In this document: piece by piece, positions 9,682-52,116 of the stretch
Numbering within the stretch: the stretch's first letter is position 1
How the letters are laid out: every line of letters begins with the position of its first letter
From: Terriglobales bacterium
GTDB lineage: Bacteria; Acidobacteriota; Terriglobia; Terriglobales; Acidobacteriaceae
Direction of reading: 5' to 3'
Assembly (NCBI GenBank): GCA_038254775.1
Contig: JBBSFV010000005.1
Span: 31,076 to 95,075 of the forward strand
Length of the DNA stretch: 64,000 nucleotides
Program-made: the position numbers and the translations under genes
Notes under the pieces: generated by a model
Seen by the model: only the letters and a program-made list of their open reading frames with translations
Told to the model about the DNA's origin: nothing
Database searches by the model: none

Positions 9682-9757
9682 TCTTCGCTTTCTGTTTCCG
9701 AAACTAACACATTATGTTGATCGGATAGCAACACGAGAGCTTTAACAATCATAAGGT

Positions 9758-11874: not shown

Positions 11875-11904
11875 TGGCCCTGCACGGTAGAATCATCTAT
11901 TCAC

Positions 11905-14859: not shown

Positions 14860-14895
14860 CCCCAGCGGCGGTGTTAGAATCCGCATCCTCTTGAG

Positions 14896-21559: not shown

Positions 21560-21561
21560 CC

Positions 21562-22821: not shown

Positions 22822-22863
22822 AAAGTGCGGGTGGATCCGCCCGCACTTCTTATGGACTTCTTC

Positions 22864-24294: not shown

Positions 24295-24363
24295 CTCAAC
24301 CGCGCGATTTTAGTACATATACTGGAACGCGCGCGAACCTGAGTCTTGCATCAAAGTTATCGA

Positions 24364-26972: not shown

Positions 26973-26998
26973 AATGAAATCATACCCCTGCTGAAGCC

Positions 26999-28606: not shown

Positions 28607-28656
28607 TATCGTTGCCTCATTTGATTACAGTTTTCGACCACGAGGGTAATGGATGT

Positions 28657-30527: not shown

Positions 30528-30894
30528 GGGGGCGTCACGGCTTCGACGGAATCGCTTGCGGCAAAGAGGCATGTCGGGGTGCATTCACCCGAAATCGAGT
30601 GCAAAAGAAACAATTGCCGATACACAAATGGCATACGCTGCTTAATTAAATAAGTAGCCGTCCTCCGTAGCTACGCCTGCGGGTTATGGAAGGACGTCAT
30701 TAGCGGGCTGGTTCGTTGTCCTAAGCCAGGGGACAGCGGATAAGATTACGGGCTAGTCGCACGCGTTTCTTGCGGGTTCTGAGCGCGGACGGCGAACGTT
30801 GCCGGTGAAGGCCGGTAGCATGAACCTGCTAAGCATGTAGTCTCTTTGTCAGTAACTTTTTCGGACGCGGGTTCAACTCCCGCCGCCTCCACCA
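30528..30894 (+). ncRNA. ssrA: tmRNA (transfer-messenger RNA)
   Basis: The 5' end GGGGGCGTCACGGCTTCGACGG pairs with the 3' end CGCCTCC-ACCA, including the G3:U wobble. T-arm is GGGTTCAACTCCC. The tag ORF ends ...GCC GAT ACA CAA ATG GCA TAC GCT GCT TAA (ADTQMAYAA, stop 30643-30645). Confidence 0.95.
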
Positions 30895-30899
30895 ACTTA
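30871..30899 (+). repeat. attL core (GTTCAACTCCCGCCGCCTCCACCAACTTA)
   Basis: Identical 29-mer at 51670-51698, checked base by base; flanking bases differ on both sides. Confidence 0.9.
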
Positions 30900-30936: not shown

Positions 30937-30964
30937 ATGTTGTACCATTTCTGTACCGCTGATT
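30937..30964 (+). repeat. Arm-type repeat, left copy (ATGTTGTACCATTTCTGTACCGCTGATT)
   Basis: 26/28 identical to 51568-51595. It contains two TGTACC units 11 nt apart and lies 38 nt inside attL. Confidence 0.6.
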
Positions 30965-35378: not shown

Positions 35379-37298
35379 ATGTTTGCATTTCATAAGATGA
35401 GCGGGATAGAGGACCTCTATGGTCGCTGGAAATCCATTGTTTTTCGTTTCTGTCTTTTGTTTTTGGGTGATGAAGAAACAGCGAGCGATGGCACACTCCA
35501 TGCATTTCTTCAATACGCCAGAGCTTCGCAAGACTATCGCTGCCCTTGGTCTGTTCCGCCGTTGCTTCTGCGGTTTGTCGATGAAGCCGCCGTGGAACGG
35601 GTCAGCACGAGCAAGAGTTCTTCTCCATCAAGCCCGCTCGCATACGAGCTTCTTCAGCTTCCGAACGATGAGCGTGCCGTTTTCATCCTTCGGTCTGCCT
35701 TGCAATTGAGTGCTGAAAAGACTGCCAAAATCTTCGGTGTGAATGTCGAGCGCGTGCGCGAATTGTGGATTGCGTCTCTCCTTGCACTTAAGGACAGCAC
35801 TACCTGCAACGTTCCTACGAGGAGATCGAGTGCAATGAGAAGGATGATTCCGCGCGCGCCTGCTAATCCCCCTTCTGCAGAACCACTTCTTCCCAATTCG
35901 GTTCAAGCCACGGAAGGACCTTACCTTGTGAAGCGAAAGCTCATCTTTGCTGCGCTTGTATCTCTCATGGTATTCACGAGCGGCTGTACCGCCTACCGGC
36001 ACAAACCGATCGTCGACCGCCAAGTACTGCGCGAACTTCAAGTTATCCGGCTGGAGTCATTGGGGCCCGCAGCGCCTTCAATCGCCAACTCGAATGGGCT
36101 TTCGCAGCAGGATGCTGTCGCAGTGGCCTTATATCTAATCCCCTCAATCCGGTCGTTTCGCAAAGAACGCGGAATAGCTGAAGGGGAGCTGGTCTCGGCC
36201 CGGCTGCTGCCCAATCCGGAGATACAGGTAAGCATTCTGGCCACGTTGGCGAATCCAATTGCAATTGGATCGAGCGCGCTTTCCGCCGCTGTGAGTCCCT
36301 TTCGTCCCGGAGAGCGCGATGTAAGAACCGCTCGCGCACATGCCAGGATTGAAGAAGTCAGGTATCACATTTCCGCCGAGGAATGGAAACTTGCCGCCGA
36401 TGTAAAAAAGACTTACCTGACGGTGTGGGCGCTGCAAGAACAGGCAAACATTGACGAAACATCCGTCCGGCTGCAAGAACGTATTCGGAAGTTGTTTCAT
36501 GACAAAAAAGAGTTGGGTGATGCGAGCCGTCTCGACCTCAACCTTGTCAATCTTGAATATGCGCAAACCTTGCGGCAGCGCGAGGTAACTGCAGGAGCTT
36601 TAGAACGCGCAAGACAGGAATTGCGAAGGTTGTTGGGATTGCCGCCGCTCTATGACTTGGCGCTCAAAGCTGATCCCGATCCACTGGCCTACAGAGCATT
36701 CAGGTTGAATGAGAGCGATCTGGAATCGTTGATGATTGAACGCCGGCCGCAACTCGCCAGCGCCAAACAGGAATACGAACAGGCAGAACAGAATCTGAGA
36801 ATCGCTTATATCCAGCGGATTCCGTGGTTCCGCCTAGGGCCGAGTTACGAGCAGGAAAGTGGTGGAGGAGAAGGCACTACCAACCGCCTCGGGGCTGGAT
36901 TAGGTCTTGATCTTCCCATCCTCAATCACAACCAGGGGATCATTGCTTCTCAAGAGGCGCTGAGGGACAAGCTGAAAGAGGGTTTTACCGCGCAGGTGCA
37001 CTCTGCGCGCGCCGATCTGAACGAGGCTGTTCGAAATCTGCGCGCTCAGGAGAGGTTGATTCGACTTTACGAAACTTCCATTCGTCCTGCGCTGGAAGAA
37101 AATGCGGAACTTACTGAGGCTGGAATCCAAGTGGGCGAATTCAATTTGCTTCAACTGATCACTACACAAGACAAGGTTTTGAAAAGCCGCAAAGAGTTCG
37201 TAGACGCAGAATTGGAGTACTGGAAGGCTGTCATAGACCTTGAATCTGCGATTGGAGCTCCTATCACCGATATAGAAGGGCGAGGTCCAAAGCCATGA
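35379..37298 (+). CDS. ECF sigma-like N-terminal region in frame with a CzcC/TolC-family outer-membrane efflux lipoprotein
   Basis: Residues 1-145 show sigma70 region 2-like (EDLYGRWKSIVFRFCLLFLGDEETASDGTLHAFL) and region 4 HTH (LPNDERAVFILRSALQLSAEKTAKIFGVNVERVRELW) patterns. They are followed, with no stop codon, by a lipoprotein signal (VKRKLIFAALVSLMVFTSGC) and a TolC-like two-repeat body. Confidence 0.7.
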   Translation: MFAFHKMSGIEDLYGRWKSIVFRFCLLFLGDEETASDGTLHAFLQYARASQDYRCPWSVPPLLLRFVDEAAVERVSTSKSSSPSSPLAYELLQLPNDERAVFILRSALQLSAEKTAKIFGVNVERVRELWIASLLALKDSTTCNVPTRRSSAMRRMIPRAPANPPSAEPLLPNSVQATEGPYLVKRKLIFAALVSLMVFTSGCTAYRHKPIVDRQVLRELQVIRLESLGPAAPSIANSNGLSQQDAVAVALYLIPSIRSFRKERGIAEGELVSARLLPNPEIQVSILATLANPIAIGSSALSAAVSPFRPGERDVRTARAHARIEEVRYHISAEEWKLAADVKKTYLTVWALQEQANIDETSVRLQERIRKLFHDKKELGDASRLDLNLVNLEYAQTLRQREVTAGALERARQELRRLLGLPPLYDLALKADPDPLAYRAFRLNESDLESLMIERRPQLASAKQEYEQAEQNLRIAYIQRIPWFRLGPSYEQESGGGEGTTNRLGAGLGLDLPILNHNQGIIASQEALRDKLKEGFTAQVHSARADLNEAVRNLRAQERLIRLYETSIRPALEENAELTEAGIQVGEFNLLQLITTQDKVLKSRKEFVDAELEYWKAVIDLESAIGAPITDIEGRGPKP

Positions 37299-38638
37299 GC
37301 ATGAAAGAACTAGTTCCAATCGTCGCGAAGAACGAAGGCAAAAGAATGATGACCTGGATTCGCAAAAACTGGGCAGCGGCTTTGTTGGTTGTAGTGCTAG
37401 TGATTCTGGGACTCTTGTTCGCCTCGGGCAAACTTCAAATTACTCCTTCAAGCACCAGCCGTAAGGTAGAGGATGGTGCGACCAAAGCCGAAGAACCCAG
37501 TCGAGTGCAGAACGGCAAGATCATCCTCGATCAAGATGATTTCGCCTCTTCAGGGATCAAGGTTCAACCTGTCACGACACAGATGATTCCCTCCTATTTC
37601 GAAGCTCCTGCTGAAGTTCAACTTGCTGAAAGCAGGGTTGCGCATGTCACACCCGGAATTGCCGGAATCATCAGAAAGGTTGAGAGAGGTGTCGGAGACC
37701 CAGTGGCGAAAGGAAGCGCACTTTGCACGATTGAGTCAGTCGACGTCGGCGATGCACGGTCCAGCTTCGTTGCCGCAGATTCAGAAAGACAGTTAGCGGA
37801 AAGGAATTACGCACGTTGGAAGCTGCTGGTGGACAAAGGCTTGCGCACTCAGAACGAACTATTTGCGGCCGAGACTGAATTGACCCGGGCAAAACTAAAG
37901 CTCGAGGCTGCAACCGCGCGATTGCGCGGCTTGGGTGCAGGCGAGCAGCAGCTTCAAGTATTAGAGAAGTCTGGTGCCGAGGGAGTGAGCAACGGCTTTG
38001 TGCTTAGAAGCCCCATCGCCGGTTCGGTGCTCGCCCGTTCAGCTACTGTCGGACAGAACGTAACAACATTGGATCAGATTTTTCAGATCGGAGACCTCTC
38101 GAGTGTCTGGGTGCAGGCTGTCGCGCATGAACAAGATCTGCCATTGATCAAGCTCGGGATGTCCGCAGTGGTCCAGCTTCCCAACTCCGGCGCCACCTTT
38201 GCCGGCAAGGTAAGTTATATCGGCGAGCAGGTTGATGAGAAAACACGGACTGTGCCCGTACGGGTGGAAGTGAGAAACGGTTACGTCCCGGGCACCGCCT
38301 CAAAACAGCACCGCTTGCTCCCAGGACTCTTCACCACACTTCACATTGAAACTGGCAGGAAGACGAATGCCCTAGTGGTCCCTGCTTCCGCCATTCAATC
38401 GGAAGGCGCGGAAAGTTTCGTCTTTGTCCAAAGCAGCGTCCAAGTATCCGACGCAGCCGCCAAAACAAATATTAGCGGATCCAGTAATGTCGCCTTTGAG
38501 CGGCGACTGGTTGAAGTGGGAACGCACACTGGAAACCTTGTAGGAATTGTGCGCGGACTTACGGCTGGAGAAAAGATCGTTGTCGAGAATGCCTACTTGC
38601 TGAAGAGTGAACTAGAGAAATCCAAAGTACAGGACTAA
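37295..38638 (+). CDS. RND efflux periplasmic adaptor (CzcB/CusB-like membrane fusion protein)
   Basis: TM anchor, lipoyl/hairpin segments (IAGIIRKVERGVGDPVAKGSALCTIES, coiled coil, LRSPIAGSVL) and a beta-barrel tail. ATGA overlap with the upstream gene. Confidence 0.85.
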   Translation: MSMKELVPIVAKNEGKRMMTWIRKNWAAALLVVVLVILGLLFASGKLQITPSSTSRKVEDGATKAEEPSRVQNGKIILDQDDFASSGIKVQPVTTQMIPSYFEAPAEVQLAESRVAHVTPGIAGIIRKVERGVGDPVAKGSALCTIESVDVGDARSSFVAADSERQLAERNYARWKLLVDKGLRTQNELFAAETELTRAKLKLEAATARLRGLGAGEQQLQVLEKSGAEGVSNGFVLRSPIAGSVLARSATVGQNVTTLDQIFQIGDLSSVWVQAVAHEQDLPLIKLGMSAVVQLPNSGATFAGKVSYIGEQVDEKTRTVPVRVEVRNGYVPGTASKQHRLLPGLFTTLHIETGRKTNALVVPASAIQSEGAESFVFVQSSVQVSDAAAKTNISGSSNVAFERRLVEVGTHTGNLVGIVRGLTAGEKIVVENAYLLKSELEKSKVQD

Positions 38639-38647
38639 GCGAAGACA

Positions 38648-41309
38648 ATGCTGAAATCATATTTGCGCTTTCTCCTGAAACAGAGGCTACTTGTAATTGC
38701 CCTGACGCTGCTGCTCGTCGGCGTTGGCATCTGGTCGGCCGATCAGTTGCCCATTGATGCCGTGCCTGACATTACAAACATCCAGGTGCAGATCAACACA
38801 GACGCCCCAGCGCTGTCGCCGCTCGAAGTAGAAAAGCAGATCACCTTTCCAGTTGAAGTCGCGGTTTCAGGACTGCCTCGCGTAACGGAAGTGCGCTCTT
38901 TATCTAAATTTGGCCTTTCACAGGTCACCGTCGTTTTTGAAGATGGCACGGACATCTATTTTGCCCGGCAGCTTGTGCAGCAGCGTGCCCGAGATGGGTC
39001 CGATCAGTACAGGTCTGGGGGAGATCTATCAATACACAGTTGAGGCCCCTGGCAATGACCTTGTAGAAGCGCGAACAATCCAGGATTGGCTGATCAAGCC
39101 AGTGCTGCGTACCGTACCAGGTGTCGCGGAAGTCAATTCATTCGGCGGGCTGGAAAAGCAGTACCAAGTGTTGATCCGGCCAGATGCTCTTTTGAAATTC
39201 GGCCTTAATCTTCGACAAGTACAACAGGCCATCGCCGCGAACAATCTCAACCGCGGCGGTGGATACATCGTCAAGAATGCGGAACAGTTTGTGGTTCGCG
39301 GTGTCGGGCAAGTTCAGACCATTGAGCAGATCAAGAACATCGTGATTGCGAGCTCTGGTGGTGTTCCGGTGCGCGTACAGGACCTGGCCGAGGTTAAGAT
39401 CGATTCCGCTCCGCGGCAAGGGGCAATCACCAAAGATGGAAAAGGCGAAGCAGTTACCGGCATCGTCATGATGCTCTTGGGGTCAAACTCACGCGTAGTG
39501 GTCGAAGATGTCAAGTCTCGAATCGTTTTGATTGTTAAGACCCTCCCTAAAGGCATCAGTCTCAAACCGTTTTATGATCGCGCAGACCTCGTGAACCGCA
39601 CTATTCACACGGTCGAGAAAAACCTCTTTGAAGGGGCAGTCCTTGTCATCGTGGTGCTTTTGTTGCTTTTGGAAAACATTCGCGCTGCTCTGATCGTCGC
39701 CCTCGCGATTCCGCTCTCGATGCTGTTCGCCGTGACGCTGATGGTCAAGTTTGGGATCGCCGGCAGCTTGATGAGCCTGGGAGCAATCGACTTTGGGCTG
39801 ATTGTTGACGGCTCGGTTGTTATGGTCGAAAACTCTGTACGTCGGCTCTCCGAGCGACAAAACGATCAAGATCTCTTTACTTCAATCGTGGCGGGTTGCG
39901 CGGAGGTTGGTCGACCGATCATCTTTGGTGTCGGCATCATCATCATCGTTTATCTGCCGATATTGACTCTTGAGGGCGTCGAAGGCAGGTTGTTCAGACC
40001 GATGGCGCTCACAGTTATTTTCGCGCTCATCGGCTCACTCATTCTTACCTTCACGTTGACACCGGTTCTTACATCTCTCTTTATCGGCAAAGTGAAAGAA
40101 AAACACGTCGGTTGGCTGCAGAAGGTCGCGAGGGCTTACGAGCATCGACTGGAATGGGTGTTCGAGCGAAAACGACTTGTACTGTACGCGAGCGCACTTC
40201 TATTAATGATTACGGTGTTCGTCAGTTTGTTTCTAGGGTCCGAATTCATTCCCACTCTGGATGAGAATGCGTTTGCATTAGAGATGCGCCGCCCACCTGG
40301 TATCTCGCTTACTGAAGCCAATAGACAAAATACGTTGCTCGAACAATATCTTCTCAAGCTCTACCCCGCCGAGATTGAGACCATTGTTTCCAAGACCGGG
40401 CGGGGAGATGTCGCCATGGACCCGATGGGTCCGAACAGCACTGACTTCATCATCCTGCTGAAACCCAGGGAACAATGGCGCAAGGTTCATAGCCGAGAGA
40501 CTCTCATAGGAACCCTCGAAGCGGATCTCAGCCATTTCATGGGTGTAAGTTACGAGTTCTCGCAGCCGATCGAGATGCGTATGAATGAGCTTATCGCTGG
40601 TGTTAGATCAGATATCGCCATTCGTATTTTCGGAGAGGACATGAAAGTCCTGGATACGACAGCAGGGAAAATCGTCGCCACAGTATCGAAATTGAATGGT
40701 GCCCGCGGTTTCAGGGCACAACAAGTGGCGGGGTTGCCGATGATCGAAGTCGTCGTACTACCGGACAAGCTCGCCCGTTATGGAATCAATTCCGGCGATG
40801 TGATGGAGGTGATCGAGGCCATTGCTGGCTTGGATACGACGCAGATCATTGAGGGACAAAGGCGCTTCGATCTGGTGCTGAAGTTTGCAGCAGGGGTAAC
40901 GAATGACAAGGAAGCCATATCGCGTCTCCTGGTCAGCGCTCCCGGGGGAGAAATGGTCCCCCTGGGGCAATTGGCAAATATCCGCGAGTTAGAAGGTCCG
41001 GCTGAGATCAGCCATCTTGGAGGTTCGCGTATGATGGCAGTCGAAGGAAATGTCCGAGGTAGGGATATTGGCAGCTTCATTGCCGACGCGCGAAGGTTGT
41101 TCGACGAAAAAAAGATTGCTCTTCCAGTTGGGTACCGCGTGGAATTCGGCGGTCAGTTCCAAAATTTGGAGCGAGCGCGCAAGCGCCTCCTGATTGTAGT
41201 GCCGCTGTCGCTTTTCCTTATCTTCCTGCTGCTCTTTACAACATTCAATTCCATCAGGCAGGCCCTACTCGTATTTTCTGGAATTCCACTGGCTGCTGTT
41301 GGTGGCGTG
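38648..41309 (+). pseudogene. Heavy-metal RND pump CzcA/CusA-family, internally deleted/frameshifted and 3'-truncated
   Basis: The N-terminus (38648-) and the remainder (GPISTGLGEIYQY...) are in different frames with a junction near 38985, and about 15 expected residues are missing. Homology stops after FSGIPLAAVGGV at 41309, roughly 150 aa short of a full pump. Confidence 0.85.
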
Positions 41310-41506
41310 ACCGTGTCGGCAACTTGGGCGGTAGTTAGCGCCTGGCCCTGGCTCTGCAGGACGAGACGTTGATTACGGTTCTCAATGAAGCCCGCGCCCA
41401 CGACTCCAGTGGCGCGACGTGCTGCGGTCAGAACATCATCTACGGTGAGGTTGTATTGGATCAATCGTTCAGGGATGAACTGCACTTGGTATTGCTTGAC
41501 CTCCCC
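41310..41506 (-). pseudogene. Inverted fragment of a second RND pump (N-terminal periplasmic segment)
   Basis: The minus strand reads GEVKQYQVQFIPERLIQYNLTVDDVLTAARRATGVVGAGFIENRNQRLVLQSQGQALTTAQVADTV, the RND porter subdomain pattern. It abuts the truncated czcA head-to-head. Confidence 0.65.
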
Positions 41507-41525: not shown

Positions 41526-42218
41526 TCACCTGCAACGTATTTGCCCCGTACTGCGCTTCGAGGCCATTTGGGCCATCCAAAGCATGGCACCGGGGTTTCC
41601 ATCGCTAAATTCAACTATTTTGTGGATAACTTCTTGGAGATTGTCCGCATGGATGCCGTATTTATTTACTACCCCTGTAGCAAATTCCGTTGCGCATGCA
41701 CTGTCGAAGTTTTTGATTTCCATGCGCTCTGACTTATCAGGAAACATATTCGCGATGAACCCTATGTCTTCCATGTGCACTGAGCGCCCGATGGCTACAA
41801 TAGGCGTGTTTGTTTCCGACGAAAAATGGCGGATGGCGGTCGCAAATGTGTGGGACACAAAACCCAATTGATCCAAGATAACTGTGTGCGAATGTGAAAC
41901 TAGCGCCCGCGCTGCAATGCCCTTAAGTGCAACCGTTGACTTGGATTTCACTGCCACGAGCGAGGTTGAACCTAGGGAGCCTACGACCGATTTCTCCTTT
42001 CTTTCGGCGAGTGCGGCAACTAATTGAACAAAGAAGTTTTTTACGGATGAGCAAGCTGTGCAAACAAGCATGTTCGGAAATCCGACTACAGCGCTGCTGA
42101 TAAGAACGGTCTTCCCCACTCCGACGGGACCATAGAGCAAGAACGATTTTCGGGCGTGCAACATCGTCTTCAAGCGGTCGAGTTCGCGTTCACGCCACAA
42201 TAGGCTGGTTCGTTCCAC
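41526..42218 (-). CDS. Small AAA/ORC-Cdc6-like ATPase
   Basis: 230 aa with RERELDRLKTML...FLLYGPVGVGKTVL (Walker A) and HTVILDQLG (Walker B-like). Confidence 0.7.
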   Translation of the reverse strand: MERTSLLWRERELDRLKTMLHARKSFLLYGPVGVGKTVLISSAVVGFPNMLVCTACSSVKNFFVQLVAALAERKEKSVVGSLGSTSLVAVKSKSTVALKGIAARALVSHSHTVILDQLGFVSHTFATAIRHFSSETNTPIVAIGRSVHMEDIGFIANMFPDKSERMEIKNFDSACATEFATGVVNKYGIHADNLQEVIHKIVEFSDGNPGAMLWMAQMASKRSTGQIRCR

Positions 42219-43117: not shown

Positions 43118-44323
43118 GTGAAAAATGAAGCGGCAAATGTAGCGGCAGAAGAAAACCCAGCGTTAATGGAGCCCATGCTTCCACCGGAAGGGACGCGGAG
43201 CCTGGAGGATCTGGCGGTTGATCTGGTAGCTAAGGCGAACACGCTTGCTGGCCAGGTGAACCCCGTGGTGCAGCGTTCGATTGGGACGCTCGTCCGATCG
43301 ATGAACTGCTACTACTCGAATCTGATTGAAGGGCATGACACTCACCCTCGCGACATCGATCGCGCGCTCGGTGACAACTACGCCAAGGAGCCTAAGCGCC
43401 GCGCCCTGCAGCTAGAGGCAGTGGCACACATTGAGGTGCAGAAGAGGATCGACGAAGAGGATGACGACAAAGGAGAGCCGACATCAGTCGCATATATCTC
43501 GTGGTTGCATCGGGAATTCTGTTCCCGGCTGCCGGAAGAACTGTTGTGGGCTGAGGATCCTGACATCAAGAAAAAGGTGCGAGTAGAACCGGGAGTATTA
43601 CGCACGACTGAGGTGGCAGTGGGGCGACATTTGCCGCCCAGAGTTGAGGCCCTTCCTGATTTCTTGCGCCGGTTCGAAGAAGCATATAGCCGAAACACCC
43701 TTTCAAAGCTGCGGCAAATCATCGGGATCGCCGCTGCCCACCATCGTCTGCTGTGGATCCATCCATTCGCCGACGGCAACGGACGCGTGGCCCGTCTCAT
43801 GGCGCATACAGCCCTTAACCGCTTGGGAGTGGGGAGCAGCCTGTGGTCGGTGTCACGCGGCCTAGCAAGAAATGTAAACCGCTACAAAGAACTGTTGATG
43901 GCGGCGGATGAGCCGCGCAGGAACGATTTAGACGGACGCGGCAGTCTGTCTCAGGCAGCACTGACGGAGTTTTGCGAATTCTTTTTGCATACCGCCATAG
44001 ATCAGGTGGAGTTCATGGAATCGCTGCTGCAACCAGGCGAACTCCTCCGTCGCATCCAGCTGTATGTCGAAGACGAGGTGCGCGCCGGACGCTTGCCGGA
44101 AGGCAGCTACTCCGTGCTGCGGGAGGCATTGTTGGCGGGAGATGTGGACCGCGCTACTGCGCGCAAATTGACTGGCTATCAGGAGCGTATGGGGCGGATG
44201 ATCGTCTCTAAGCTGATGGAGAAGGGGCTGTTGACTTCCGAAGGGCCGAAGATGCCGGTACGGCTTGGATTCCCACTGGACGTTGTCGAACGTTGGTTCC
44301 CAAAACTCTACCCCGTGGCATGA
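43118..44323 (+). CDS. Class II Fic-domain protein (AMPylase family) with N-terminal inhibitory helix and C-terminal wHTH-like region
   Basis: Fic motif HPFADGNGRVARL. The inhibitory (S/T)xxxE(G/N) motif appears as SNLIEG in YYSNLIEGHDT. Confidence 0.88.
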   Translation: MKNEAANVAAEENPALMEPMLPPEGTRSLEDLAVDLVAKANTLAGQVNPVVQRSIGTLVRSMNCYYSNLIEGHDTHPRDIDRALGDNYAKEPKRRALQLEAVAHIEVQKRIDEEDDDKGEPTSVAYISWLHREFCSRLPEELLWAEDPDIKKKVRVEPGVLRTTEVAVGRHLPPRVEALPDFLRRFEEAYSRNTLSKLRQIIGIAAAHHRLLWIHPFADGNGRVARLMAHTALNRLGVGSSLWSVSRGLARNVNRYKELLMAADEPRRNDLDGRGSLSQAALTEFCEFFLHTAIDQVEFMESLLQPGELLRRIQLYVEDEVRAGRLPEGSYSVLREALLAGDVDRATARKLTGYQERMGRMIVSKLMEKGLLTSEGPKMPVRLGFPLDVVERWFPKLYPVA

Positions 44324-44375: not shown

Positions 44376-44404
44376 TTGCAATCGGGAAATCTGAATTGTA
44401 TAGT
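44376..44404 (+). promoter_or_regulatory. Sigma70-type promoter TTGCAA-17-TATAGT in front of the six-gene cassette
   Basis: -35 at 44376-44381 and -10 at 44399-44404, about 24 nt upstream of ATG 44428. Confidence 0.45.
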
Positions 44405-44427
44405 TGAGGCGAATAAAAAGCGAAACT

Positions 44428-46320
44428 ATGGGTAAGCCCTTTAAATCTGAGCTCCAAAAGCTGTCTCAAACCTATGAATGGGCTTTGTGCCTCGAGAACA
44501 CGGGTCTCAAAAGACAGATAAATGCCGCTGGGTCTTATCCTCTTGTGGCCATTGGCTCTGGTGGATCCCAGAGCACGGCCGTTCTCATCTCAGATCTTCA
44601 TCAAAGCACTTTCGGCGAGGTGGCGAAGGCAGATACGCCGGTTGGCGCGTGGAATTATCTAAAAGATCTCCGGTCGAGCGCGATTCTTCTTGTTAGCGCC
44701 GGTGGAAAGAATCCTGACATTCTGGGCATTGCGCGTGCTGCAGTGGAAGCTGAGCCAAGATTGTTGATCGCAATATGCGCGACTCAGGGCTCTCCTTTGG
44801 CGCGGATTGTGAATGGATTTGCGAGAGGTTTTTGTTTCGATTTTGGGCTGCCGAGCGGCAAAGATGGCTTCCTGGCTACCAATAGCTTGCTGGCGATGAG
44901 CGTGATTGCCCTTCGCGCTTTTGGATATGACCGCGATACACTGCCCCCTTCGTTTCCATCGCGGCAGTCAATAAGCCGCAAAAACGGGTCGAAGAGGTCG
45001 CGCAAGGTCGGTGGGTTGCGCGACGTCCCGAATTTAGTGGTTCTGCATGGAGCGCACAGCAGGAGCGCGGCGTTTGACCTTGAATCGAAGTTGGTGGAGG
45101 CAGGACTAGTTTCGGTGCAGCTTGCCGACTACAGGAACTTCGCTCATGGAAGGCATCATTGGCTCGCAAAACATCCCGACTCAAGTGTGGTGGCGTTTGC
45201 GAGTAAGGAAGAAAGACTGCTCGCGGACCGAACTCTGCGACTTCTTCCTCACAATATTTCATGGCAACTCATCGCTACTCAAACGCCCGGCTATGCCTCC
45301 TGGGTTGAGCTTCAGGCAGCGGTGTTCGAATTGGTGTCAGAGTTTGGGGATGCCAAGTCCATCGATCCAGGACGGCCAGGAGTGCCGGCATTTGGTCGCC
45401 GAATCTATCACCTGAATGCTTTTCATTCCCCTAAGAAGGACTTGAGATCAACAGCCATTGCTAGGAAGAGGAAGTCATCTGGTCAAAACAATGCCGATTA
45501 TTTGCAAAAGCTTGATCTCAGTTTCTCGGAGATGTGCGCGAAGCTTCGTAATGCAAATTTTAACGGCCTCGTTCTGGACTATGACGGGACGATATGTGAT
45601 CACGTGGATAGGTTCGAAGCAATTCCTCAGATAACGGCTCGAGCGATTAGCCGAGTCGTGGAAGCTGGTTTCCTACTAGGAATAGCTACCGGTCGTGGTA
45701 AATCGGTCAGGAAAGCTTTGCAAGCCGCCATCGAAAAGAGTGCCTGGAGCCGGGTCAAGGTGGGGTATTACAACGGGGCGGTGGTGGCCGATCTTGGAGA
45801 TGATGCACAGCCAGATACCAGTTGTGGAGTCGCGCCCGGGTTGCAGGACGCAGCTGATGCCTTGAGAACGATTTGCGCGGCGTCCCAGGTTGATTTAAGT
45901 ATCCGGCCACAACAAATCACTGTGGAGCCTACGGTGCCAATGGAGGTAATGGAATTGTGGTCGCGTGTAACACAGCGCTTGGAGGAAAACGGGATAAGAG
46001 GCGTTAAGGTGGTGGCATCTACTCGGTCGGTAGACGTGGTGCTAGAAGAAACTAGTAAACTTGCGCTCGTCCGAGCGTTGGAACAGACGCGACCAAGGTC
46101 GACACTCTTGTGTATAGGTGATCGACCGTGTTGGCCCGGCAATGATGCTCAGTTACTCGGCCAAGACTTTTCTTTAAGCGTAGACGAAGTGGATGGTAAC
46201 CCATCAGGCGCATGGAATCTGTCGCCGGCTGGAGTTCTTGGGGCAGCCGCGCTGCGATATTATCTTTCCGCAATAAAAATAGGACCAAAGCATTTTTCGA
46301 TTCAGCTGAGGTGCGATTGA
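44428..46320 (+). CDS. Cassette gene A: double-SIS phosphosugar isomerase-like domain fused to a HAD-IIB phosphatase domain
   Basis: SIS 1 is VAIGSGGSQSTA...ILLVSAGGKNPDIL...LIAICATQGSPLA. SIS 2 resembles the GlmS/AgaS C-terminal half (FDLESKLVEAGLVSVQLADYRNFAHGRHHWL). HAD motifs are LVLDYDGTI, GIATGRG and CIGDRPCWPGNDAQL. Confidence 0.8.
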   Translation: MGKPFKSELQKLSQTYEWALCLENTGLKRQINAAGSYPLVAIGSGGSQSTAVLISDLHQSTFGEVAKADTPVGAWNYLKDLRSSAILLVSAGGKNPDILGIARAAVEAEPRLLIAICATQGSPLARIVNGFARGFCFDFGLPSGKDGFLATNSLLAMSVIALRAFGYDRDTLPPSFPSRQSISRKNGSKRSRKVGGLRDVPNLVVLHGAHSRSAAFDLESKLVEAGLVSVQLADYRNFAHGRHHWLAKHPDSSVVAFASKEERLLADRTLRLLPHNISWQLIATQTPGYASWVELQAAVFELVSEFGDAKSIDPGRPGVPAFGRRIYHLNAFHSPKKDLRSTAIARKRKSSGQNNADYLQKLDLSFSEMCAKLRNANFNGLVLDYDGTICDHVDRFEAIPQITARAISRVVEAGFLLGIATGRGKSVRKALQAAIEKSAWSRVKVGYYNGAVVADLGDDAQPDTSCGVAPGLQDAADALRTICAASQVDLSIRPQQITVEPTVPMEVMELWSRVTQRLEENGIRGVKVVASTRSVDVVLEETSKLALVRALEQTRPRSTLLCIGDRPCWPGNDAQLLGQDFSLSVDEVDGNPSGAWNLSPAGVLGAAALRYYLSAIKIGPKHFSIQLRCD

Positions 46321-47426
46321 AAGATCAGTTAGCGGAAGAACTCCTTGCGAGGGTGATGGGTTGGAAAGACCCAGCGGAGTTTGTGGAACATGGGCGGCCG
46401 CTTATGGCTATGTCTGCTTACAAGTATGACGAATACCAGCAGTTCTCGCCAGGAATGCGTTTCATTGAGAGTCTGGCGCTCTGGCTGGGACAATTTAAGA
46501 CGTCGGCGCAGAGGAGGGCCGCGCTGTCTTTCGTAAGGAAAAGACTGGTATTCGTGTCCGCGGCGGAAATGAATCACCTCGTGACCATTTCTTATTCAGA
46601 CCACGTTCGTCCGCTTCTGCTCTCGAAGGCTGCGGCTGAAGCCGGTTTATCGAGATGGCACATCGGGAAAGTAGCCCATAGCGTGGAATTTCGCGTGCGC
46701 GAGCGGAGGTGCCTCTTTCTCGGACTTAGCGACGGATCGCGAACTGACGTTTTTCGGCGAGCGAATCCTCATTTGCAGAATGATCAGGTGCGCCAAAGTC
46801 ACGAATTGACCACTGATCGCTCAATGGATTTGAGAAAGGAACTCGTTAAGGATCTGACGAGACTTTTGGGTCGCGCACCCACGGATGAGGAAGCGGCGTT
46901 CCGCTCAGTCGTGCTATTGGACGATTTTTCCGCAAGCGGTATTAGCTATATCCGCAAGAAAGAGGACGGCTCGTACGCTGGCAAGGTGGGCAAGTTCTTG
47001 GGCGCTCTAAGTGCCCCTTCAAATCCCTTGTCGCAGTTGTTCACGACGAAGCTTGAAGTGATTCTGGTCCTCTACATGGGTACTGACACCGCTGAACGAG
47101 GCCTTCTACAAGGGTTGTCCAACCTATGCGATCCGTCCGATTATGACGCGAATCTCATCATCATCCAACGATTTCCGGAGAGCCAGCGCGTAATACGTGG
47201 CGCAATACCGGAATTTGATGCCCTCATTGATGGGCACTACGACGATACAAATGAAACGTCGAGTACATCTCTTGGGGGTACTGATCTTAAGTACGGATTC
47301 GCAGGGGGCGCTTTGCCGCTGATCTTGGGCCACAATACTCCAAATAATTCCATCGGATTGCTCTGGGCGGAAGGTCCAAATATGGTGCCGCTGTTCCCGC
47401 GCGTTACGAGACATAAGGATCTATGA
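46311..47426 (+). CDS. Cassette gene B: phosphoribosyltransferase (PRTase)-like protein
   Basis: PRPP-loop-like VVLLDDFSASGISY in the C-terminal half; the N-terminal helical domain has no recognised family. Start is uncertain (GTG 46311, TTG 46317 as a TTGA overlap, or ATG 46356). Confidence 0.75.
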   Translation: MRLKDQLAEELLARVMGWKDPAEFVEHGRPLMAMSAYKYDEYQQFSPGMRFIESLALWLGQFKTSAQRRAALSFVRKRLVFVSAAEMNHLVTISYSDHVRPLLLSKAAAEAGLSRWHIGKVAHSVEFRVRERRCLFLGLSDGSRTDVFRRANPHLQNDQVRQSHELTTDRSMDLRKELVKDLTRLLGRAPTDEEAAFRSVVLLDDFSASGISYIRKKEDGSYAGKVGKFLGALSAPSNPLSQLFTTKLEVILVLYMGTDTAERGLLQGLSNLCDPSDYDANLIIIQRFPESQRVIRGAIPEFDALIDGHYDDTNETSSTSLGGTDLKYGFAGGALPLILGHNTPNNSIGLLWAEGPNMVPLFPRVTRHKDL

Positions 47427-49339
47427 GAGAGCCTCGAAATCCATTTCGGCTTAGGGCGTCAGAGGCCATCGAGTCCGATACCACTTTTCTGAAGCTCTTT
47501 GGGCCAGGAATGCTTGAGTTGCTCCCGACCGGGGCTCAGGTTTGGGACAAACCCCAAGTGTTCCGCAGTGCTCCCGGCGCCGGAAAGAGCTCATTGCTGC
47601 GCCTATTTACTCCCACGGTGCTGCTGACGCTTCACACCTTTCGCCGAAATGAAGATTTGAAGGAGCTGTATCAGAAGATGACTGAAATGGGCGTAGTCGA
47701 CGAGGAAGGCCCCCGCTTGTTGGGTGTCTTTCACTCTTGTGCGCGGAATTACGCCACGCTGGAAGACCTGGAATTTGATTCTGCGCGAAAAGAAAGGCTG
47801 CTATTTGGATTGCTGAATGCTCGTGTCATTCTCGCCGCGTTGCGGTCTGCCTTGGCATTACATCGGATGGATTATCCGGGAGATCTGGGCCGGATCAGTT
47901 TCAGTGTTAACGTGATTGAGGCTTTTGGAAGCAGCTTGTCCCCAAACAGCACGGGAGAGGATCTGCATCAATGGGCAACGCAACTGGAAGGAGCTGTTTG
48001 CGACGCTATTGATAGTTTTGGCGGATCGGATCTGAAGGGACTTCCCGGAAGTGACACGTTTTCGGCTCTGAGTCTGCTGCAGCGCGAGAGCTTGTTGATA
48101 GATCAGAAGCCGGTTGCAGAACATGTTCTGCTGCTGCTCGATGATGTCCATCACCTTACACATCGACAAAGAAAACGAGTCCTAAAAGTTATAGCTGAGT
48201 TAAGGACTGGGGTTGGTGTTTGGCTGGCCGAGAGATTTGAAGCGCTCAGCGCCGATGAGATGCTAGCGTCCGGCACGTCCGAAGGAAGGGACTACGAGGG
48301 AGAAATCCTGTTGGAGCGTTTTTGGAGGGAACATCCGCGTAAGTTCGAGACCCTTTTGATGAGTGTTGCCGACCGTCGCGCCAGCGCGGCGGTGAACGTT
48401 GAAGTGAGCTCGCTCGATTCGTGTTTGCAAGCATCTCTCGATGGCCCCGAATGGACAGAGAAGTATGAGTCGGCGATTCCAGTGATTCGGGATCGGGTCA
48501 CGCAGACCGTCGATAGGCGAGATCTGTTTGATGTCTGGATCGAGGCGCAGAGCGCCTCCGGAGGAACAGCGCGGGATCGCGCAATCGGTTGGCGTACGCT
48601 AGAGATTCTTGTGCATCGAGAGATTAAGCGAGAGCAAGGTTCGTTTGATTTTCCTTTAAGCGCTTCTGAGCTGACGGAACGGAGTGATTCTCAATTGAGG
48701 ACTGCGGCAGAGTTGTTCTTGGCGCAAGAGTTTCATTTGCCCTATTACTTCGGGACAAAGAAACTCGCAAGCCTTGCGTCGTGGAACATCGAGCAGTTTA
48801 TGCGACTCGCGGGAGACGAATTCGAGGAGGTTGTTTCATCTCGGACAGTGAGGCGGGCAGCAACGCTCGATGCTGGTCGGCAGGATGCGTTGCTTCGAGG
48901 CGCCTCTTCGTCTTTCTGGAGCGAGATTCCGCGCCGGGCGAGGAACGGTGAAAAGGTACTGAAGTTATTGGAATCGATCGGCCAATTCTGCCGTCAGCGG
49001 ACATACGAACCTACGGCGTCTTACGACCCAGGCGTGACGGGAATCGCGATCTCGATGCAAGATAAAGAATCTCTTCAGGATGAAGCTTTCTTACTGCGTA
49101 ATCCTCAGTATTCTATTTTGGCTGATGTCTTGGCAGCAGCGATCGCAAACAACCTGCTTGAGCCCCGCCTTGATTCTAGAGCTAAGGGCTCGAGCTGGAT
49201 GGTTCTAAATCTTAATCGGCTGCTATGCGTCACTTTGGATTTGCCGTTGGCGTACGGTGGATGGAAGGAGCAGCATCTGCGCGATCTGCATACCTGGATG
49301 ACGGCGGGCTTCAAGCCGAAACAGGCAACGCTCTTATGA
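47423..49339 (+). CDS. Cassette gene C: large ORC/Cdc6-like (STAND-like) P-loop NTPase
   Basis: Walker A SAPGAGKSSLL and Walker B VLLLLDDVHHL, with about 400 aa of unassigned helical C-terminal sequence. ATGA overlap with gene B. Confidence 0.8.
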   Translation: MREPRNPFRLRASEAIESDTTFLKLFGPGMLELLPTGAQVWDKPQVFRSAPGAGKSSLLRLFTPTVLLTLHTFRRNEDLKELYQKMTEMGVVDEEGPRLLGVFHSCARNYATLEDLEFDSARKERLLFGLLNARVILAALRSALALHRMDYPGDLGRISFSVNVIEAFGSSLSPNSTGEDLHQWATQLEGAVCDAIDSFGGSDLKGLPGSDTFSALSLLQRESLLIDQKPVAEHVLLLLDDVHHLTHRQRKRVLKVIAELRTGVGVWLAERFEALSADEMLASGTSEGRDYEGEILLERFWREHPRKFETLLMSVADRRASAAVNVEVSSLDSCLQASLDGPEWTEKYESAIPVIRDRVTQTVDRRDLFDVWIEAQSASGGTARDRAIGWRTLEILVHREIKREQGSFDFPLSASELTERSDSQLRTAAELFLAQEFHLPYYFGTKKLASLASWNIEQFMRLAGDEFEEVVSSRTVRRAATLDAGRQDALLRGASSSFWSEIPRRARNGEKVLKLLESIGQFCRQRTYEPTASYDPGVTGIAISMQDKESLQDEAFLLRNPQYSILADVLAAAIANNLLEPRLDSRAKGSSWMVLNLNRLLCVTLDLPLAYGGWKEQHLRDLHTWMTAGFKPKQATLL

Positions 49340-49956
49340 GGCGGAACCAAAAAGATCGGTGGGAGTCTTACGTTCAAGTAAGCGACGAATCGGTTTGCAG
49401 TTTTTTGCGCGAGCATCTGGGTGCCAAAGAAAAAGCAGGCAAGAGCTGTCTGATTGTCGGCAAGGGTTTCGATCCGCGAATGCTTGAGGGCTTAAAGGTT
49501 CTCCGCGGAGCATTGGATCCTGAGCAGATTTCAATCATTATGTTGGTTTTCAACGAGGGACCAACATCGCCTTCGCGCGGATATGACGAATTAGTGCGTA
49601 AGAACGTCGATGCAATGCGACAAATGGTCCCGGGCGGTGAAATCCAAGAGCGGAACATCAACATGTTTTCATCCGAGGGCCGAAGGATTACTTCGCGTTC
49701 AGCGGAATCGGCGTTTCGTTCGGTAAGCGAACTTCAGAGATTCAGAGACATTTTTGTTGATGTGAGCTCCTTGCCCCGCAGCATCTATTTTCCGGTGCTA
49801 GCGAAACTTCTTCATCTCCTAGATGGCGTCAAAGAGGCGACACCCCCGAATCTGTTTGTCTTAGTCAGTGAAAATGCCGAATTAGACCGGCGGATTATGG
49901 AAGAAGGAATCGATGAAAGATGCGGATTACATTCACCCGTTTCGAGGAGCAGTTGA
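49336..49956 (+). CDS. Cassette gene D: unknown alpha/beta (Rossmann-like) protein
   Basis: ATGA overlap with gene C. Alternating strand/helix pattern (SCLIVGKGFDPRMLEGL, IFVDVSSLPRSIYFPVLAKLL, NLFVLVSEN). No family recognised. Confidence 0.6.
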   Translation: MRRNQKDRWESYVQVSDESVCSFLREHLGAKEKAGKSCLIVGKGFDPRMLEGLKVLRGALDPEQISIIMLVFNEGPTSPSRGYDELVRKNVDAMRQMVPGGEIQERNINMFSSEGRRITSRSAESAFRSVSELQRFRDIFVDVSSLPRSIYFPVLAKLLHLLDGVKEATPPNLFVLVSENAELDRRIMEEGIDERCGLHSPVSRSS

Positions 49957-50476
49957 AAGAGAATCGGCCGCTGGCCGTCCGAAGGTCTGGTTTCCATTGT
50001 TGGGAGAGAATCAACGTGTTCAGCTCACCCGGATTTATGATTTGATTAATCCCGCGGAAATATGTCCGCTATTGCCTTCTCCGTCCAGAGACCCTCGGCG
50101 GGGAGACAACATCGTCGTTGAGTACCGGGAGCTCTTGTTTGATCAACTTCGAGTTGAGATGGGAAACTTTGTTTACGCATCCGAGACCAATGCGTTCGAG
50201 ACGTATCGGCAACTGAGGCGCGCAATTTTGCACTATGCTGACGCTCTTAAGCCATTGGGTGGATCGAATGCCGTGATTTCCGCGAATTCCAGTAAACTGC
50301 TTTCGGTCGGGGCTTTGTTGGCTGCGTATGAACTGAAGCATGAACGGGCCGACATTGCCATCGCCCATGTTGAGGCGCACGGATACGTTTTGCAGGATTC
50401 GGATAAGGATTTGGAACGCTTGGCCAGCGCCAGTACGCTTCAATGCCTCTGGCTCTCAGGGAGCTGTTATGAATAA
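49913..50476 (+). CDS. Cassette gene E: unknown protein (possibly the C-terminal half of D)
   Basis: ATG 49913 is preceded by GAAGGA and overlaps D by 44 nt. Its stop overlaps the F start (ATGAATAA). Confidence 0.6.
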   Translation: MKDADYIHPFRGAVERESAAGRPKVWFPLLGENQRVQLTRIYDLINPAEICPLLPSPSRDPRRGDNIVVEYRELLFDQLRVEMGNFVYASETNAFETYRQLRRAILHYADALKPLGGSNAVISANSSKLLSVGALLAAYELKHERADIAIAHVEAHGYVLQDSDKDLERLASASTLQCLWLSGSCYE

Positions 50477-51566
50477 GGCAAGAGAACCGCGAAAGTCGCG
50501 ATTGGTAGCAGCAGGATTTTGCGCGTTGGACATTGTTTTTGGGCTTGATGATCCTTCGCCACGGTTTTATGCGGGTGGGACGTGCGGAAATGTCGCCGCC
50601 GGCTTGGCTTTCCTTGGATGGGATACAAAACCAATCGCGCGCCTTACAAACGATGTTGCTGGCGAGTTTGTAAGGCAGGATTTGGAACGGTGGGGAGTTG
50701 ACACCAACTTTATTGCGTTGAGTCCTTCTGGCGCGACACCTATTGTGCTGGAGAAAATCCAGCTGAGCAAGAATGGCCTGCCGAAGCATCGCTTTCTGTG
50801 GAATTGTCCGGATTGCAGTTCATATTTTCCTCCGTTCAAGCCAGTCTTGCGGAACCAAGTTGAAGAGCTGAAGGGGAAATTGGGATCTCCGGAAATCTTT
50901 TACGCCGATAGAGTATCTCGGTCTACCGTTGACTTGGCGAGCTATTTTAGCGAGAAGGGATCGTTGATTTACTTTGAGCCCTCCGCGGCGGGCGATCCTA
51001 AACTGTTTCGAGAGATGTTGCAGCTTACCGATGTGTTGAAGTACTCCGCACAGCGAGCCCGTTCTTTTTCGGAGTTGCTGCGCGACCACAAAGCCTTTTT
51101 AGAAATTGAGACTCTTGGAGAAGATGGCTTGCGCTTTAGGACACGCAGGGCTTTCAATTCATGGTGTTCGGTGCCTGCGTATGAAGTGAAACTCAAAGAT
51201 ACAGCGGGGTCCGGCGATTGGACATCTATCGGCCTAATGTCCGAAATGTTGGCGGAGGGCAAGAAAGGCCTTGAGAAGGCGACGAAACGTGAAATTTCTT
51301 CGAGTTTAGAACATGCGCAAGCAGTTGCTGCGTTGAATTGCCAATTTGAAGGACCAAGAGGAGGCATGTATCAGCTTTCAAAGAGTAAATTCCTGCAATC
51401 AATAGCAGTTCTCGAACGAAGGAAGTCAGGAGCTCAGAAACAAAGAACCATTTCTTTGACGCAGCAATTAACGACATCCATTGTTTGCCCAAGTTGCGGC
51501 CCGAACCCTAATCGGAAGAGCGCTAAGGTAGAATTCGAAAGTGTTTCCGTCATCTCGAGGAGCTGA
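50469..51566 (+). CDS. Cassette gene F: PfkB/ribokinase-family kinase with CxxC insert and C-terminal CxxC
   Basis: N-terminal GGTCGNVA and the anion-hole/catalytic motif DTAGSGDW. The insert is WNCPDCSSYF and the C-terminus has VCPSCGPN. Confidence 0.8.
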   Translation: MNKAREPRKSRLVAAGFCALDIVFGLDDPSPRFYAGGTCGNVAAGLAFLGWDTKPIARLTNDVAGEFVRQDLERWGVDTNFIALSPSGATPIVLEKIQLSKNGLPKHRFLWNCPDCSSYFPPFKPVLRNQVEELKGKLGSPEIFYADRVSRSTVDLASYFSEKGSLIYFEPSAAGDPKLFREMLQLTDVLKYSAQRARSFSELLRDHKAFLEIETLGEDGLRFRTRRAFNSWCSVPAYEVKLKDTAGSGDWTSIGLMSEMLAEGKKGLEKATKREISSSLEHAQAVAALNCQFEGPRGGMYQLSKSKFLQSIAVLERRKSGAQKQRTISLTQQLTTSIVCPSCGPNPNRKSAKVEFESVSVISRS

Positions 51567-51567: not shown

Positions 51568-51595
51568 ATGTTGTACCGTTTTTGTACCGCTGATT
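51568..51595 (+). repeat. Arm-type repeat, right copy (ATGTTGTACCGTTTTTGTACCGCTGATT)
   Basis: 26/28 identical to 30937-30964, located 74 nt inside attR. Confidence 0.6.
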
Positions 51596-51669: not shown

Positions 51670-51698
51670 GTTCAACTCCCGCCGCCTCCACCAACTTA
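51670..51698 (+). repeat. attR core (displaced copy of the tmRNA 3' end)
   Basis: Identical 29-mer to 30871-30899. Confidence 0.9.
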
Positions 51699-51717: not shown

Positions 51718-52116
51718 ATGGCGCCTATGATCTATCTCCTCAAGACCGAACCCAGCACCTACTCCTTCAGTGATCTTCAGCGCGAGAAAGAAACCATTTG
51801 GGATGGCGTTACTAATCCCGCCGCCGTAAAGAACTTGCGTCAGATGAAATCAGGCGACCAGCTCATCATCTACCACACTGGAGGAGAGAAGAGCGCAGTG
51901 GGCACCGCGACCGTTATTGCTGTAGACCTCAATGACCCCAACAGACCACTGGTGAAGATCAAAGCTGGTCAACCGCTTTCCAATCCCATTTCGCTCGCCG
52001 AATTGAAAAGCATGACGCTATTTGCGGACTCGCCGCTAGTGCGGCAACCTCGGCTATCTGTTGTGCCGCTCACAGCAGCGCAGCACCAGATCTTTACTTC
52101 TTCAAAAGCAGCCTAA
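51718..52116 (+). CDS. EVE (PUA-like) domain protein
   Basis: IYLLKTEPSTYSFSDLQREKETIWDGVTNPAAVKNLRQMKSGDQLIIYHTG, 132 aa. Confidence 0.8.
   Translation: MAPMIYLLKTEPSTYSFSDLQREKETIWDGVTNPAAVKNLRQMKSGDQLIIYHTGGEKSAVGTATVIAVDLNDPNRPLVKIKAGQPLSNPISLAELKSMTLFADSPLVRQPRLSVVPLTAAQHQIFTSSKAA

Follow-up and report, generated by a model that had tools for sequence, protein, structure and literature searches.

A 64,000-nt stretch of DNA from a Terriglobales bacterium (contig JBBSFV010000005.1, positions 31,076 to 95,075), referred to here as the window, carries a block of overlapping same-strand genes at positions 44376-51566, at the right end of a genomic island inserted at the ssrA gene. It is one instance of a rare module of five genes that has spread horizontally and is highly likely to be a conflict module (anti-phage or anti-plasmid) of some kind. 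Its genes, named A, B, C, DE and F in the order in which they follow each other on the + strand, encode a double SIS protein fused to a HAD-type phosphatase, a phosphoribosyltransferase-like protein (PRTase-CE), an ORC-CDC6-like AAA+ NTPase, a tandem CARF-like receptor and a PfkB-family kinase. The original prediction, made from the letters of the window, counted six genes. There are five, and D and E are the halves of one protein of about 379 aa that is covered by a single PADLOC profile and encoded by a single gene in relatives.

The spread of the module was traced with the C family as query in one genome per species (185,579 species), and the family was found in 55 of them. At 47 of these 55 loci the genes stand in the order A-B-C-DE-F on one strand with mostly overlapping junctions; contig ends truncate seven more, and the remaining one (L044) is degraded. 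Searches with the five proteins (tblastn) confirmed that the families co-occur in the same order far beyond this genome. Of another 81 loci, 80 came from metagenomes and one from an IMG/VR contig; in 79 of them the cassette is complete and in the same order up to the point where the contig ends. The hosts in the genome scan belong to Acidobacteriota, Binatia, Armatimonadota, Planctomycetota, Chloroflexota, Nitrospirota, Bacteroidota and Actinomycetota, and across all sets the module is present in some ten phyla, Pseudomonadota included. The five-gene set also resides on about 20 plasmids of cultured Proteobacteria and Actinobacteria, nine of which are conjugative. A complete cassette was seen on a 126-kb contig of a metagenome-assembled genome (MAG) labelled as a Methanobacteriota archaeon (L042); its flanks, which encode MscS, a methyltransferase and, just downstream, an Mrr-type restriction enzyme, do not confirm the archaeal label.

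On the plasmids the gene order varies and the families stay together. Plasmids of Agrobacterium, Sulfitobacter and Rathayibacter keep the order A-B-C-DE-F, which on a Paraburkholderia plasmid is followed by a NADAR gene. Intact cassettes occupy positions 21513-28686 of A. tumefaciens pAtA74a_b, 278287-285358 of Sulfitobacter alexandrii plasmid unnamed5 and 9061-16113 of Rathayibacter VKM Ac-2760 plasmid unnamed2. The order is B-C-DE-A-F on the Paenarthrobacter TC1 and Bosea plasmids and NADAR-A-B-C-DE, without F, on a B. gladioli plasmid. An S. meliloti plasmid carries a DE-like gene, A-F, NADAR, a helix-turn-helix (HTH) gene and B-C-DE, and an R. tumorigenes plasmid carries NADAR-A-F-B-C-DE, a patatin gene and then a second triad, B'-C'-DE'. 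These arrangements point to two sub-modules, namely an A-F pair, sometimes joined by NADAR, and a B-C-DE triad. The extra triad of R. tumorigenes pRt1078 (L152, 2503-6663) lies beside a complete cassette and has no A or F of its own, and the end of an extra triad lies beside the complete cassette of S. meliloti pRRI128_5 (L151, 4-975). Both suggest that triads can share one enzyme pair.

The surroundings of the cassette are variable and often of a mobile or defence type, in line with the neighbourhood that the original prediction expected of a conflict system. Flanks include TIR-AbiJ genes, a DCD gene together with a Tn7-like element, prophage-like DNA, SIR2 and genes for Mrr, AbiEii and RadC. 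On one conjugative plasmid the cassette is inserted among type IV secretion system genes, between the relaxase/type IV coupling protein genes and virB11. A survey of the 150 nearest open reading frames (ORFs) of 38 loci, in which the 25 most frequent families were listed, revealed no conserved neighbour; integrases, type I restriction enzymes, AbiE, AriA/PtuA-like ATPases and PDC candidates recur. The sole IMG/VR match (L065, UViG_3300014204_000241, 6912-11044), which is filed as viral, comprises A, B and the first ~320 residues of C on an element with an integrase, a transposase and a DNA methyltransferase. A 'RHE_PE00001 family protein' of ~370 aa, 70-79% identical between copies, was also seen beside the cassette on three Rhizobiaceae plasmids (L147, 4581-5693; L151, 9133-10269; L152, 7139-8278).

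NADAR, usually with a small HTH protein, accompanies the cassette in six of the 12 plasmid loci inspected (L146, L148, L151, L153, L154 and L155). The hosts are B. gladioli, R. tumorigenes, S. meliloti, Paraburkholderia, Rhizobium CC-CFT758 and Bosea, and all six copies lie on alpha- or beta-proteobacterial plasmids. This family of N-glycoside and ADP-ribose hydrolases brings to mind a toxin-antidote, addiction or exclusion module, in which B would phosphoribosylate a macromolecule or an essential metabolite, NADAR or the HAD phosphatase would reverse the modification and the mobile element would benefit. The conjugative plasmids, and the copy next to virB11 in particular, fit such a scheme. 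So does DS-32, a PRTase and NADAR pair that protects E. coli from phage and has been likened by its authors to a toxin-antitoxin pair (bioRxiv 10.1101/2025.01.08.631726). However, tblastn with four NADAR proteins found no NADAR in the window, only one of the 55 genome loci (L036) has one nearby, and five genes including an AAA+ protein and a receptor are far more elaborate than known toxin-antitoxin systems, which makes a module of this kind improbable. The likeness to DS-32 is confined to the linkage of a PRTase to NADAR in the proteobacterial versions of the cassette, with B and DS-32A compared by description; DS-32 has two genes, and its NADAR partner has no counterpart in the window.

The reassignment of D and E had the largest effect on how the module is read. 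D aligns with positions 2-175 (1.8e-35) and E with positions 174-348 (9.9e-67) of one profile, PADLOC PDLC01910 'CARF6--CARF_CARF_CARF', and every intact relative has a single gene of 353-384 aa at this place. The two proteins that the original prediction could not place form one tandem CARF-like receptor according to the PADLOC CARF6 profile, an AlphaFold2 (AF2) model and Foldseek comparisons. With DE as a receptor, the logic of the system shifts towards ligand sensing. The AF2 model of an intact DE orthologue (P0131; predicted local distance difference test, pLDDT, 86; predicted template modelling score, pTM, 0.88) consists of two Rossmann-like domains, at residues 1-192 and 216-379, joined by a linker whose pLDDT at residues 200-211 is below 50. 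Single DE domains matched the CARF domains of Cam1 (8t64, 8t66), Card1 (6wxw), Csa3 (6wxq) and Crn1 (7ygl) with a Foldseek probability of 1.0; E-values were only 2e-4 to 2e-3, and target-normalised template modelling scores ranged from 0.24 to 0.60 (Cam1 0.51-0.60, Crn1 0.49, Csa3 0.40, Card1 0.24). The whole protein matched tandem universal stress protein folds. Conserved motifs follow strands one and four of the domains (GxGFDPR and DxSxxPR in domain 1, PSPxxPRRGD and SSKLLS in domain 2), and their basic and polar residues may line a pocket for a phosphorylated ligand.

The receptor gene of the window is interrupted by a single inserted A. An alignment of the DNA with the intact orthologues L007 and L002 located the insertion in an A3 run at 49916-49918 (+), which has one A more than the relatives; the junction reads GATGAAAGATG in the window, GATGAGGATG in L007 and GACGAAGACG in L002. 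ORF D (49336-49956, +) encodes the N-terminal CARF-like domain, native residues 1-194 up to ...EEGIDE, and ends in a 12-aa out-of-frame tail. ORF E (49913-50476, +) encodes the C-terminal CARF-like domain from an ATG that the insertion has put in frame, and is native again from DADYIHPF. The identical split is present in the Logan assembly of run SRR24807095 (L006), whose reads are possibly those behind the window too. Programmed frameshifting at this junction was considered and rejected, as the relatives all carry one uninterrupted gene. The block was said to be free of any definite lesion, which it is not, and the ongoing selection that had been deduced from its intactness loses its basis in this genome. 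Apparent frameshifts were also encountered in the MAG copies L019, L051, L052, L059, L061 and L064; these are indistinguishable from long-read sequencing errors.

The lesion raises the question of whether this copy is simply a decaying, inert remnant like the rest of the island cargo, a view that is compatible with any of the other readings and that has about an even chance of being correct. The +1 frameshift within DE, the truncated neighbouring cargo and the degraded copies found elsewhere (L044, L065, L083 and Rhizobium CC-CFT758) speak for decay. On the other hand, the remaining four genes are full length and retain all their catalytic motifs, and the frameshift falls into the disordered interdomain linker and costs no native residue. 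The downstream half is moreover equipped with its own ATG and a Shine-Dalgarno-like GAAGGA (49903-49908) 4 nt upstream of it. The lineage of the window shows no DE-specific excess of non-synonymous changes (0.037 versus the outgroup, compared with 0.047 for B), and synonymous divergence (dS) is saturated, so that the frameshift cannot be dated by the ratio of non-synonymous to synonymous changes (dN/dS). The split copy is either a recent pseudogene or a still-working split receptor, the second option having somewhat less than an even chance. With its receptor gene frameshifted, the copy in the window is of limited use for studying the module; as a natural split-receptor variant, it could show whether CARF-like domains work as separate chains.

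The domain assignments that had been proposed for A, B, C and F hold in Pfam, NCBIfam and PDB searches. Gene C (47423-49339, +) encodes a 638-aa ORC-CDC6-like AAA+ NTPase that matches Pfam PF24389 at 4.5e-17 (62.4 bits against a cut-off of 27). All 23 C orthologues contain this domain (best E-value 1e-32), with an invariant Walker A motif (GxGK; S49, G52, G54 and K55) and Walker B aspartates D240 and D241. The family comprises 685 clusters at 50% identity among 1.84 billion representatives. Among the matches listed, the full-length members all range from about 610 to 760 aa, most of them between 620 and 680, and P0362 alone is extended, by 129 residues at its N-terminus. C is adjacent to B and translationally coupled to it by an ATGA overlap, and both proteins score above the Pfam gathering thresholds. 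Sequence and profile searches of the PDB with B, C and DE gave no match.

Gene B (46311-47426, +), with 369-371 aa depending on whether translation starts at GTG 46311 or TTG 46317, encodes the PRTase-CE protein, which is predicted to be the effector of the module. It matches Pfam PF24390 at 6.2e-13 (49.6 bits against a cut-off of 27), and all of its homologues carry a precomputed PF24390 annotation. The motif VVLLDDFSASGxS resembles a loop that binds phosphoribosyl pyrophosphate (PRPP), and its D204 and D205 are invariant in sets of 23 and 30 sequences. hhalign placed this loop on VLIVEDIIDSG of E. coli Hpt in an overall match that was not significant. A Foldseek search of the PDB with the AF2 model of B (pLDDT 81) found no significant structure, the best E-value being 0.14 and orotate phosphoribosyltransferase appearing at rank 46; in BFVD the model had one match, a viral 'PRTase-CE domain-containing protein' (E = 2e-4). 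In PMC12871103, 'CE' is explained as 'conflict effector', a term coined by Nicastro et al. (2023, NAR 51:11479), with nucleotide depletion as the predicted activity.

A and F are enzymes of familiar classes. Gene A (44428-46320, +; 630 aa) encodes an N-terminal double SIS part of the GlmS-isomerase/NagB-II type and a C-terminal HAD-IIB (Cof-type) phosphatase. The SIS part matches the NagB-II/phosphosugar isomerases 8eol and 3hba in the PDB (1e-4 to 2.5e-5); the HAD part matches Pfam Hydrolase_3 (4e-5), the NCBIfam HAD-IIB model and HAD-IIB proteins in the PDB. Across 22 sequences from about nine phyla, the HAD motifs DYDGT (D384, D386), K544 and GD..GND (D565, D573) are invariant, and so are GSGGS and a dense patch, ADYRNFAHGRHH, in the second SIS domain. 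Gene F (50469-51566, +; 365 aa) encodes a PfkB-family kinase (Pfam PfkB 9e-13; fructokinase 7fca in the PDB, 7e-12) with invariant GG..N and DTAGAGDW (D244, D250) motifs. It also contains four cysteines, of which C113 and C340 are invariant and C116 and C343 almost invariant, and which probably form a zinc site. Between close relatives, dN/dS is ~0.03-0.12 where dS is measurable.

A kinase, an isomerase-like SIS protein and a phosphatase are ordinary classes of sugar metabolism, and RefSeq labels A as 'HAD hydrolase' or 'sucrose-6-phosphate hydrolase' and F as 'fructokinase'. The cassette could be a mobile operon for the metabolism of an unusual sugar of the amino, keto or ribosyl kind; the original prediction had named such a module, for an amino- or keto-sugar, as its alternative. 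Such an operon would be hard to reconcile with the 150 nearest ORFs of the 38 loci surveyed, among which no conserved transporter, sugar-use regulator, dehydrogenase or aldolase was seen. The set always includes an AAA+ protein of 640 aa and a CARF-like protein that is not an enzyme, the B family is shared with retron type III-A effectors, and the spread is patchy, with few species in many phyla. A metabolic role is therefore the least probable of the explanations weighed here, and very doubtful.

As a conflict module, the cassette might work as follows. The kinase F would phosphorylate a sugar or ribosyl compound, A, a phosphosugar-binding double SIS fused to a HAD-IIB phosphatase, would dephosphorylate it, and the two would thereby set the level of a ligand. 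DE, with two CARF-like Rossmann domains in one chain and no enzyme domain of its own, would read this ligand, and the ORC/Cdc6-like ATPase C would serve as a switch or scaffold and perhaps as a sensor of the invader. Once the ligand passes a threshold, DE and C would release B, which may act on the ribose-base bond of nucleotides or use PRPP, and nucleotide metabolism would be shut down. The analysis establishes a horizontally mobile and strongly constrained module: its gene families, their strict co-occurrence, the division into two sub-modules, the conservation of catalytic and pocket residues, and surroundings of a mobile or defence type. A role in defence, the nature of the ligand, the direction in which the signal runs and the substrate of B are inferred. 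The mechanism is supported by analogy with the 'CE' domains, with PUA-Calcineurin-CE-HAD and with DS-32, and the complete chain, from a phosphorylated ligand set by A and F through the receptor DE and the switch C to the effector B, is about equally likely to be right or wrong. The original outline of small-molecule enzymes under NTPase control was reasonable in this respect; it had missed the ligand-sensing receptor.

It is conceivable, although rather unlikely, that the module is a cyclase-free immune route in which the sugar-type kinase F and the SIS-gated HAD phosphatase A write and erase a messenger, a phosphorylated sugar or ribosyl compound, DE reads it and C activates B, with several triads sharing one enzyme pair. 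If true, a CARF-type pathway would for the first time be seen to run without Cas10 or CD-NTase chemistry. More generally, should the module act in defence, the range of CARF-type sensing would grow to include ligands from ordinary kinase and phosphatase chemistry, and PRTase-CE effectors would gain their first testable context. Its presence on plasmids of the tractable species Agrobacterium tumefaciens, Sinorhizobium meliloti, Rhizobium leguminosarum, Burkholderia gladioli and Paenarthrobacter aurescens TC1 makes experiments feasible.

The same enzymes could also take part in the depletion itself. B would then cleave a glycosidic bond of nucleotides, F and the SIS and HAD parts of A would phosphorylate, isomerise and dephosphorylate the ribosyl product beyond salvage, and DE and C would gate the onset of this cascade, without any messenger. 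The enzyme set resembles the archaeal pentose-bisphosphate route of nucleoside breakdown. The best NCBIfam match of F is a ribose-1-phosphate kinase model, at a score far below its cut-off (48.8 versus 330 bits). A precedent exists in the validated system PUA-Calcineurin-CE-HAD, where a partner HAD phosphatase augments a nucleotide-degrading effector (PMC12871103). Against such a cascade, extra B'-C'-DE' triads occur without their own A or F, and the B. gladioli copy lacks F. A dedicated receptor, DE, is always present and would be better explained if something is sensed. A messenger-free cascade is thus unlikely, and a ligand-controlled conflict module is preferred.

Several points weigh against this preferred reading. 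The family is known from sequences and models alone, and in the window the receptor gene is frameshifted. B is placed in the PRTase superfamily by its Pfam family and one motif, and it might make a compound rather than destroy one. Neither a nucleotide cyclase nor another known messenger synthase is linked to the cassette, either among the five families or among the 25 most frequent families of the 150 nearest ORFs of the 38 loci, and because of this the ligand of DE is a guess. The flank survey is qualitative, and the neighbours include the housekeeping genes for AccA, DnaE and SRP54. The cassette was found in none of 50,697 phage genomes, an absence that is neutral for a defence role; carriage by phages was rejected, the single IMG/VR match being a truncated copy.

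Comparison with known systems sets the cassette apart from each of them. No complete system in PADLOC-DB v2.0, a library that includes the PDC candidates, was matched, in agreement with the original statement that the combination is no named system, and A, C and F matched no model in this library. With type III CRISPR and CARF signalling proteins (Csm6, Card1, Cam1, Csa3 and Crn1), DE shares a Rossmann-like CARF fold for the reading of a small, phosphorylated ligand, and its two domains, joined in a single chain, resemble the dimer that CARF proteins usually form. Unlike those systems, the cassette has no Cas10, cyclase, CRISPR array or fused effector domain, and it has a sugar-type kinase and a phosphatase alongside. 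The ligand of DE is probably not a cyclic oligoadenylate.

B also matches the PADLOC PRTase_III-A models of retron type III-A (3.5e-9), but covers only part of the profile, mainly the C-terminal HNTPNNS...LFPRVxRH motif. By family assignment there is no reverse transcriptase among the five proteins, and no msr/msd was noted, although no dedicated scan was made for either; a retron is unlikely. PUA-Calcineurin-CE-HAD and DS-9 (DefensePredictor) likewise combine a nucleotide-targeting 'CE' effector with a HAD phosphatase and are triggered by a small nucleotide ligand. They differ from the cassette in the fold of the effector, in the sensor (PUA rather than CARF-like) and in the HAD type (C1 cap rather than IIB), and they have neither an AAA+ protein nor a kinase. 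The comparison with ADP-heptose synthesis that had been drawn from the enzyme classes is apt as far as it goes, since SIS, PfkB kinase and HAD phosphatase are also the classes of GmhA, HldE/HldA and GmhB. However, the SIS part of A is a double one of the GlmS/NagB-II type and not a single GmhA, its HAD part is of type IIB and not of the GmhB type, and the cassette includes no nucleotidyltransferase and has no lipopolysaccharide or capsule context, its flanks being variable. The cassette is not a CBASS-type system, not a type III CRISPR system and not an ADP-heptose operon.

The nearest described class is that of the PRTase-CE/ORC-CDC6-like conflict systems, which are predicted to target free nucleotides. 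B and C belong to these two families and are adjacent; PADLOC v2 has no system model for the class. PF24390 (PRTase-CE) and PF24389 (ORC-CDC6-like) are consecutively numbered Pfam families, and their names follow the style of the 2023 conflict-effector survey. The claim that the system is undescribed is doubtful, since B and C fall into these Pfam families and DE into PADLOC CARF6. A full-text literature search, outside of which Nicastro 2023 and Makarova 2020 lay, found no paper on the five-gene set and no use of 'PRTase-CE'; the set is not covered in Makarova 2014 or in the jumbo-phage, NAD-ADPr and polyvalent-protein papers. Given the rigidity of the operon, any survey of B-C neighbourhoods would have met the remaining genes, and it is rather likely that the full operon has already been noted computationally.

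In the window, the cassette is laid out as a continuous series of same-strand ORFs (44404/44428-46320, 46311/46317-47426, 47423-49339, 49336-49956, 49913-50476 and 50469-51566). The overlapping junctions that had been described are all present in the sequence, as GTG..TTGA at 46311-46320, ATGA at 47423-47426, ATGA at 49336-49339 and ATGAATAA at 50469-50476. The sigma-70-like hexamers TTGCAA-17-TATAGT (44376-44404, +), which match at nine of 12 positions, lie 5' of gene A and are a possible promoter. They are present as claimed and have no statistical support, a hexamer scan of the region giving two such sites versus 5.0 ± 2.2 in shuffled sequences. Because the last base of the -10 hexamer is also the first of the longest A ORF (TTG 44404), gene A more likely starts at ATG 44428, which gives 630 aa, as called in L006.

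The island that bears the cassette is 20.8 kb long and was correctly assigned to ssrA. Its borders are perfect 29-nt copies of the ssrA 3' end, the left one (30871-30899) forming the 3' end of the transfer-messenger RNA gene (30528-30894, annotated as a feature at 30528-30899, +) and the right one, 100% identical, lying at 51670-51698 (+). A tyrosine integrase (30986-32206, +; Pfam Phage_integrase 9.7e-19) is encoded next to the left border. A second, 28-nt direct repeat is located inside the island at both ends (30937-30964 and 51568-51595; same orientation, 93% identical), 38 nt past the left ssrA copy and 75 nt short of the right one, and could represent integrase arm sites or the trace of a tandem integration. 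The F gene ends at 51566, 2 nt before the right copy of this repeat, as had been reported.

Between the integrase and the Fic gene, which was rightly placed next to the cassette (43118-44323), the cargo consists of truncated RND-efflux, permease and ArdC-like pieces. Its description as decayed was checked for part of the cargo and agrees with the AcrB-like ORF, the permease fragment, the OEP ORF and the ArdC-like fragment. The RND-efflux remnants at 35379-41372 (+) comprise the OEP ORF, which has an odd sigma-70 region-4 N-terminus, an HlyD-type fusion protein and the AcrB-like ORF, which begins at profile position 122. A 230-aa ORF on the opposite strand (41526-42218, -), to the left of the ArdC-like fragment and the Fic gene, has weak matches to AAA_16, AAA_22, NB-ARC and nSTAND6 and looks like a truncated STAND-type NTPase. 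On the other side of the cassette, 20 nt outside the right ssrA repeat, an ORF at 51718-52116 (+) encodes an EVE protein (Pfam EVE 2.4e-28), a PUA-like domain that binds modified bases.

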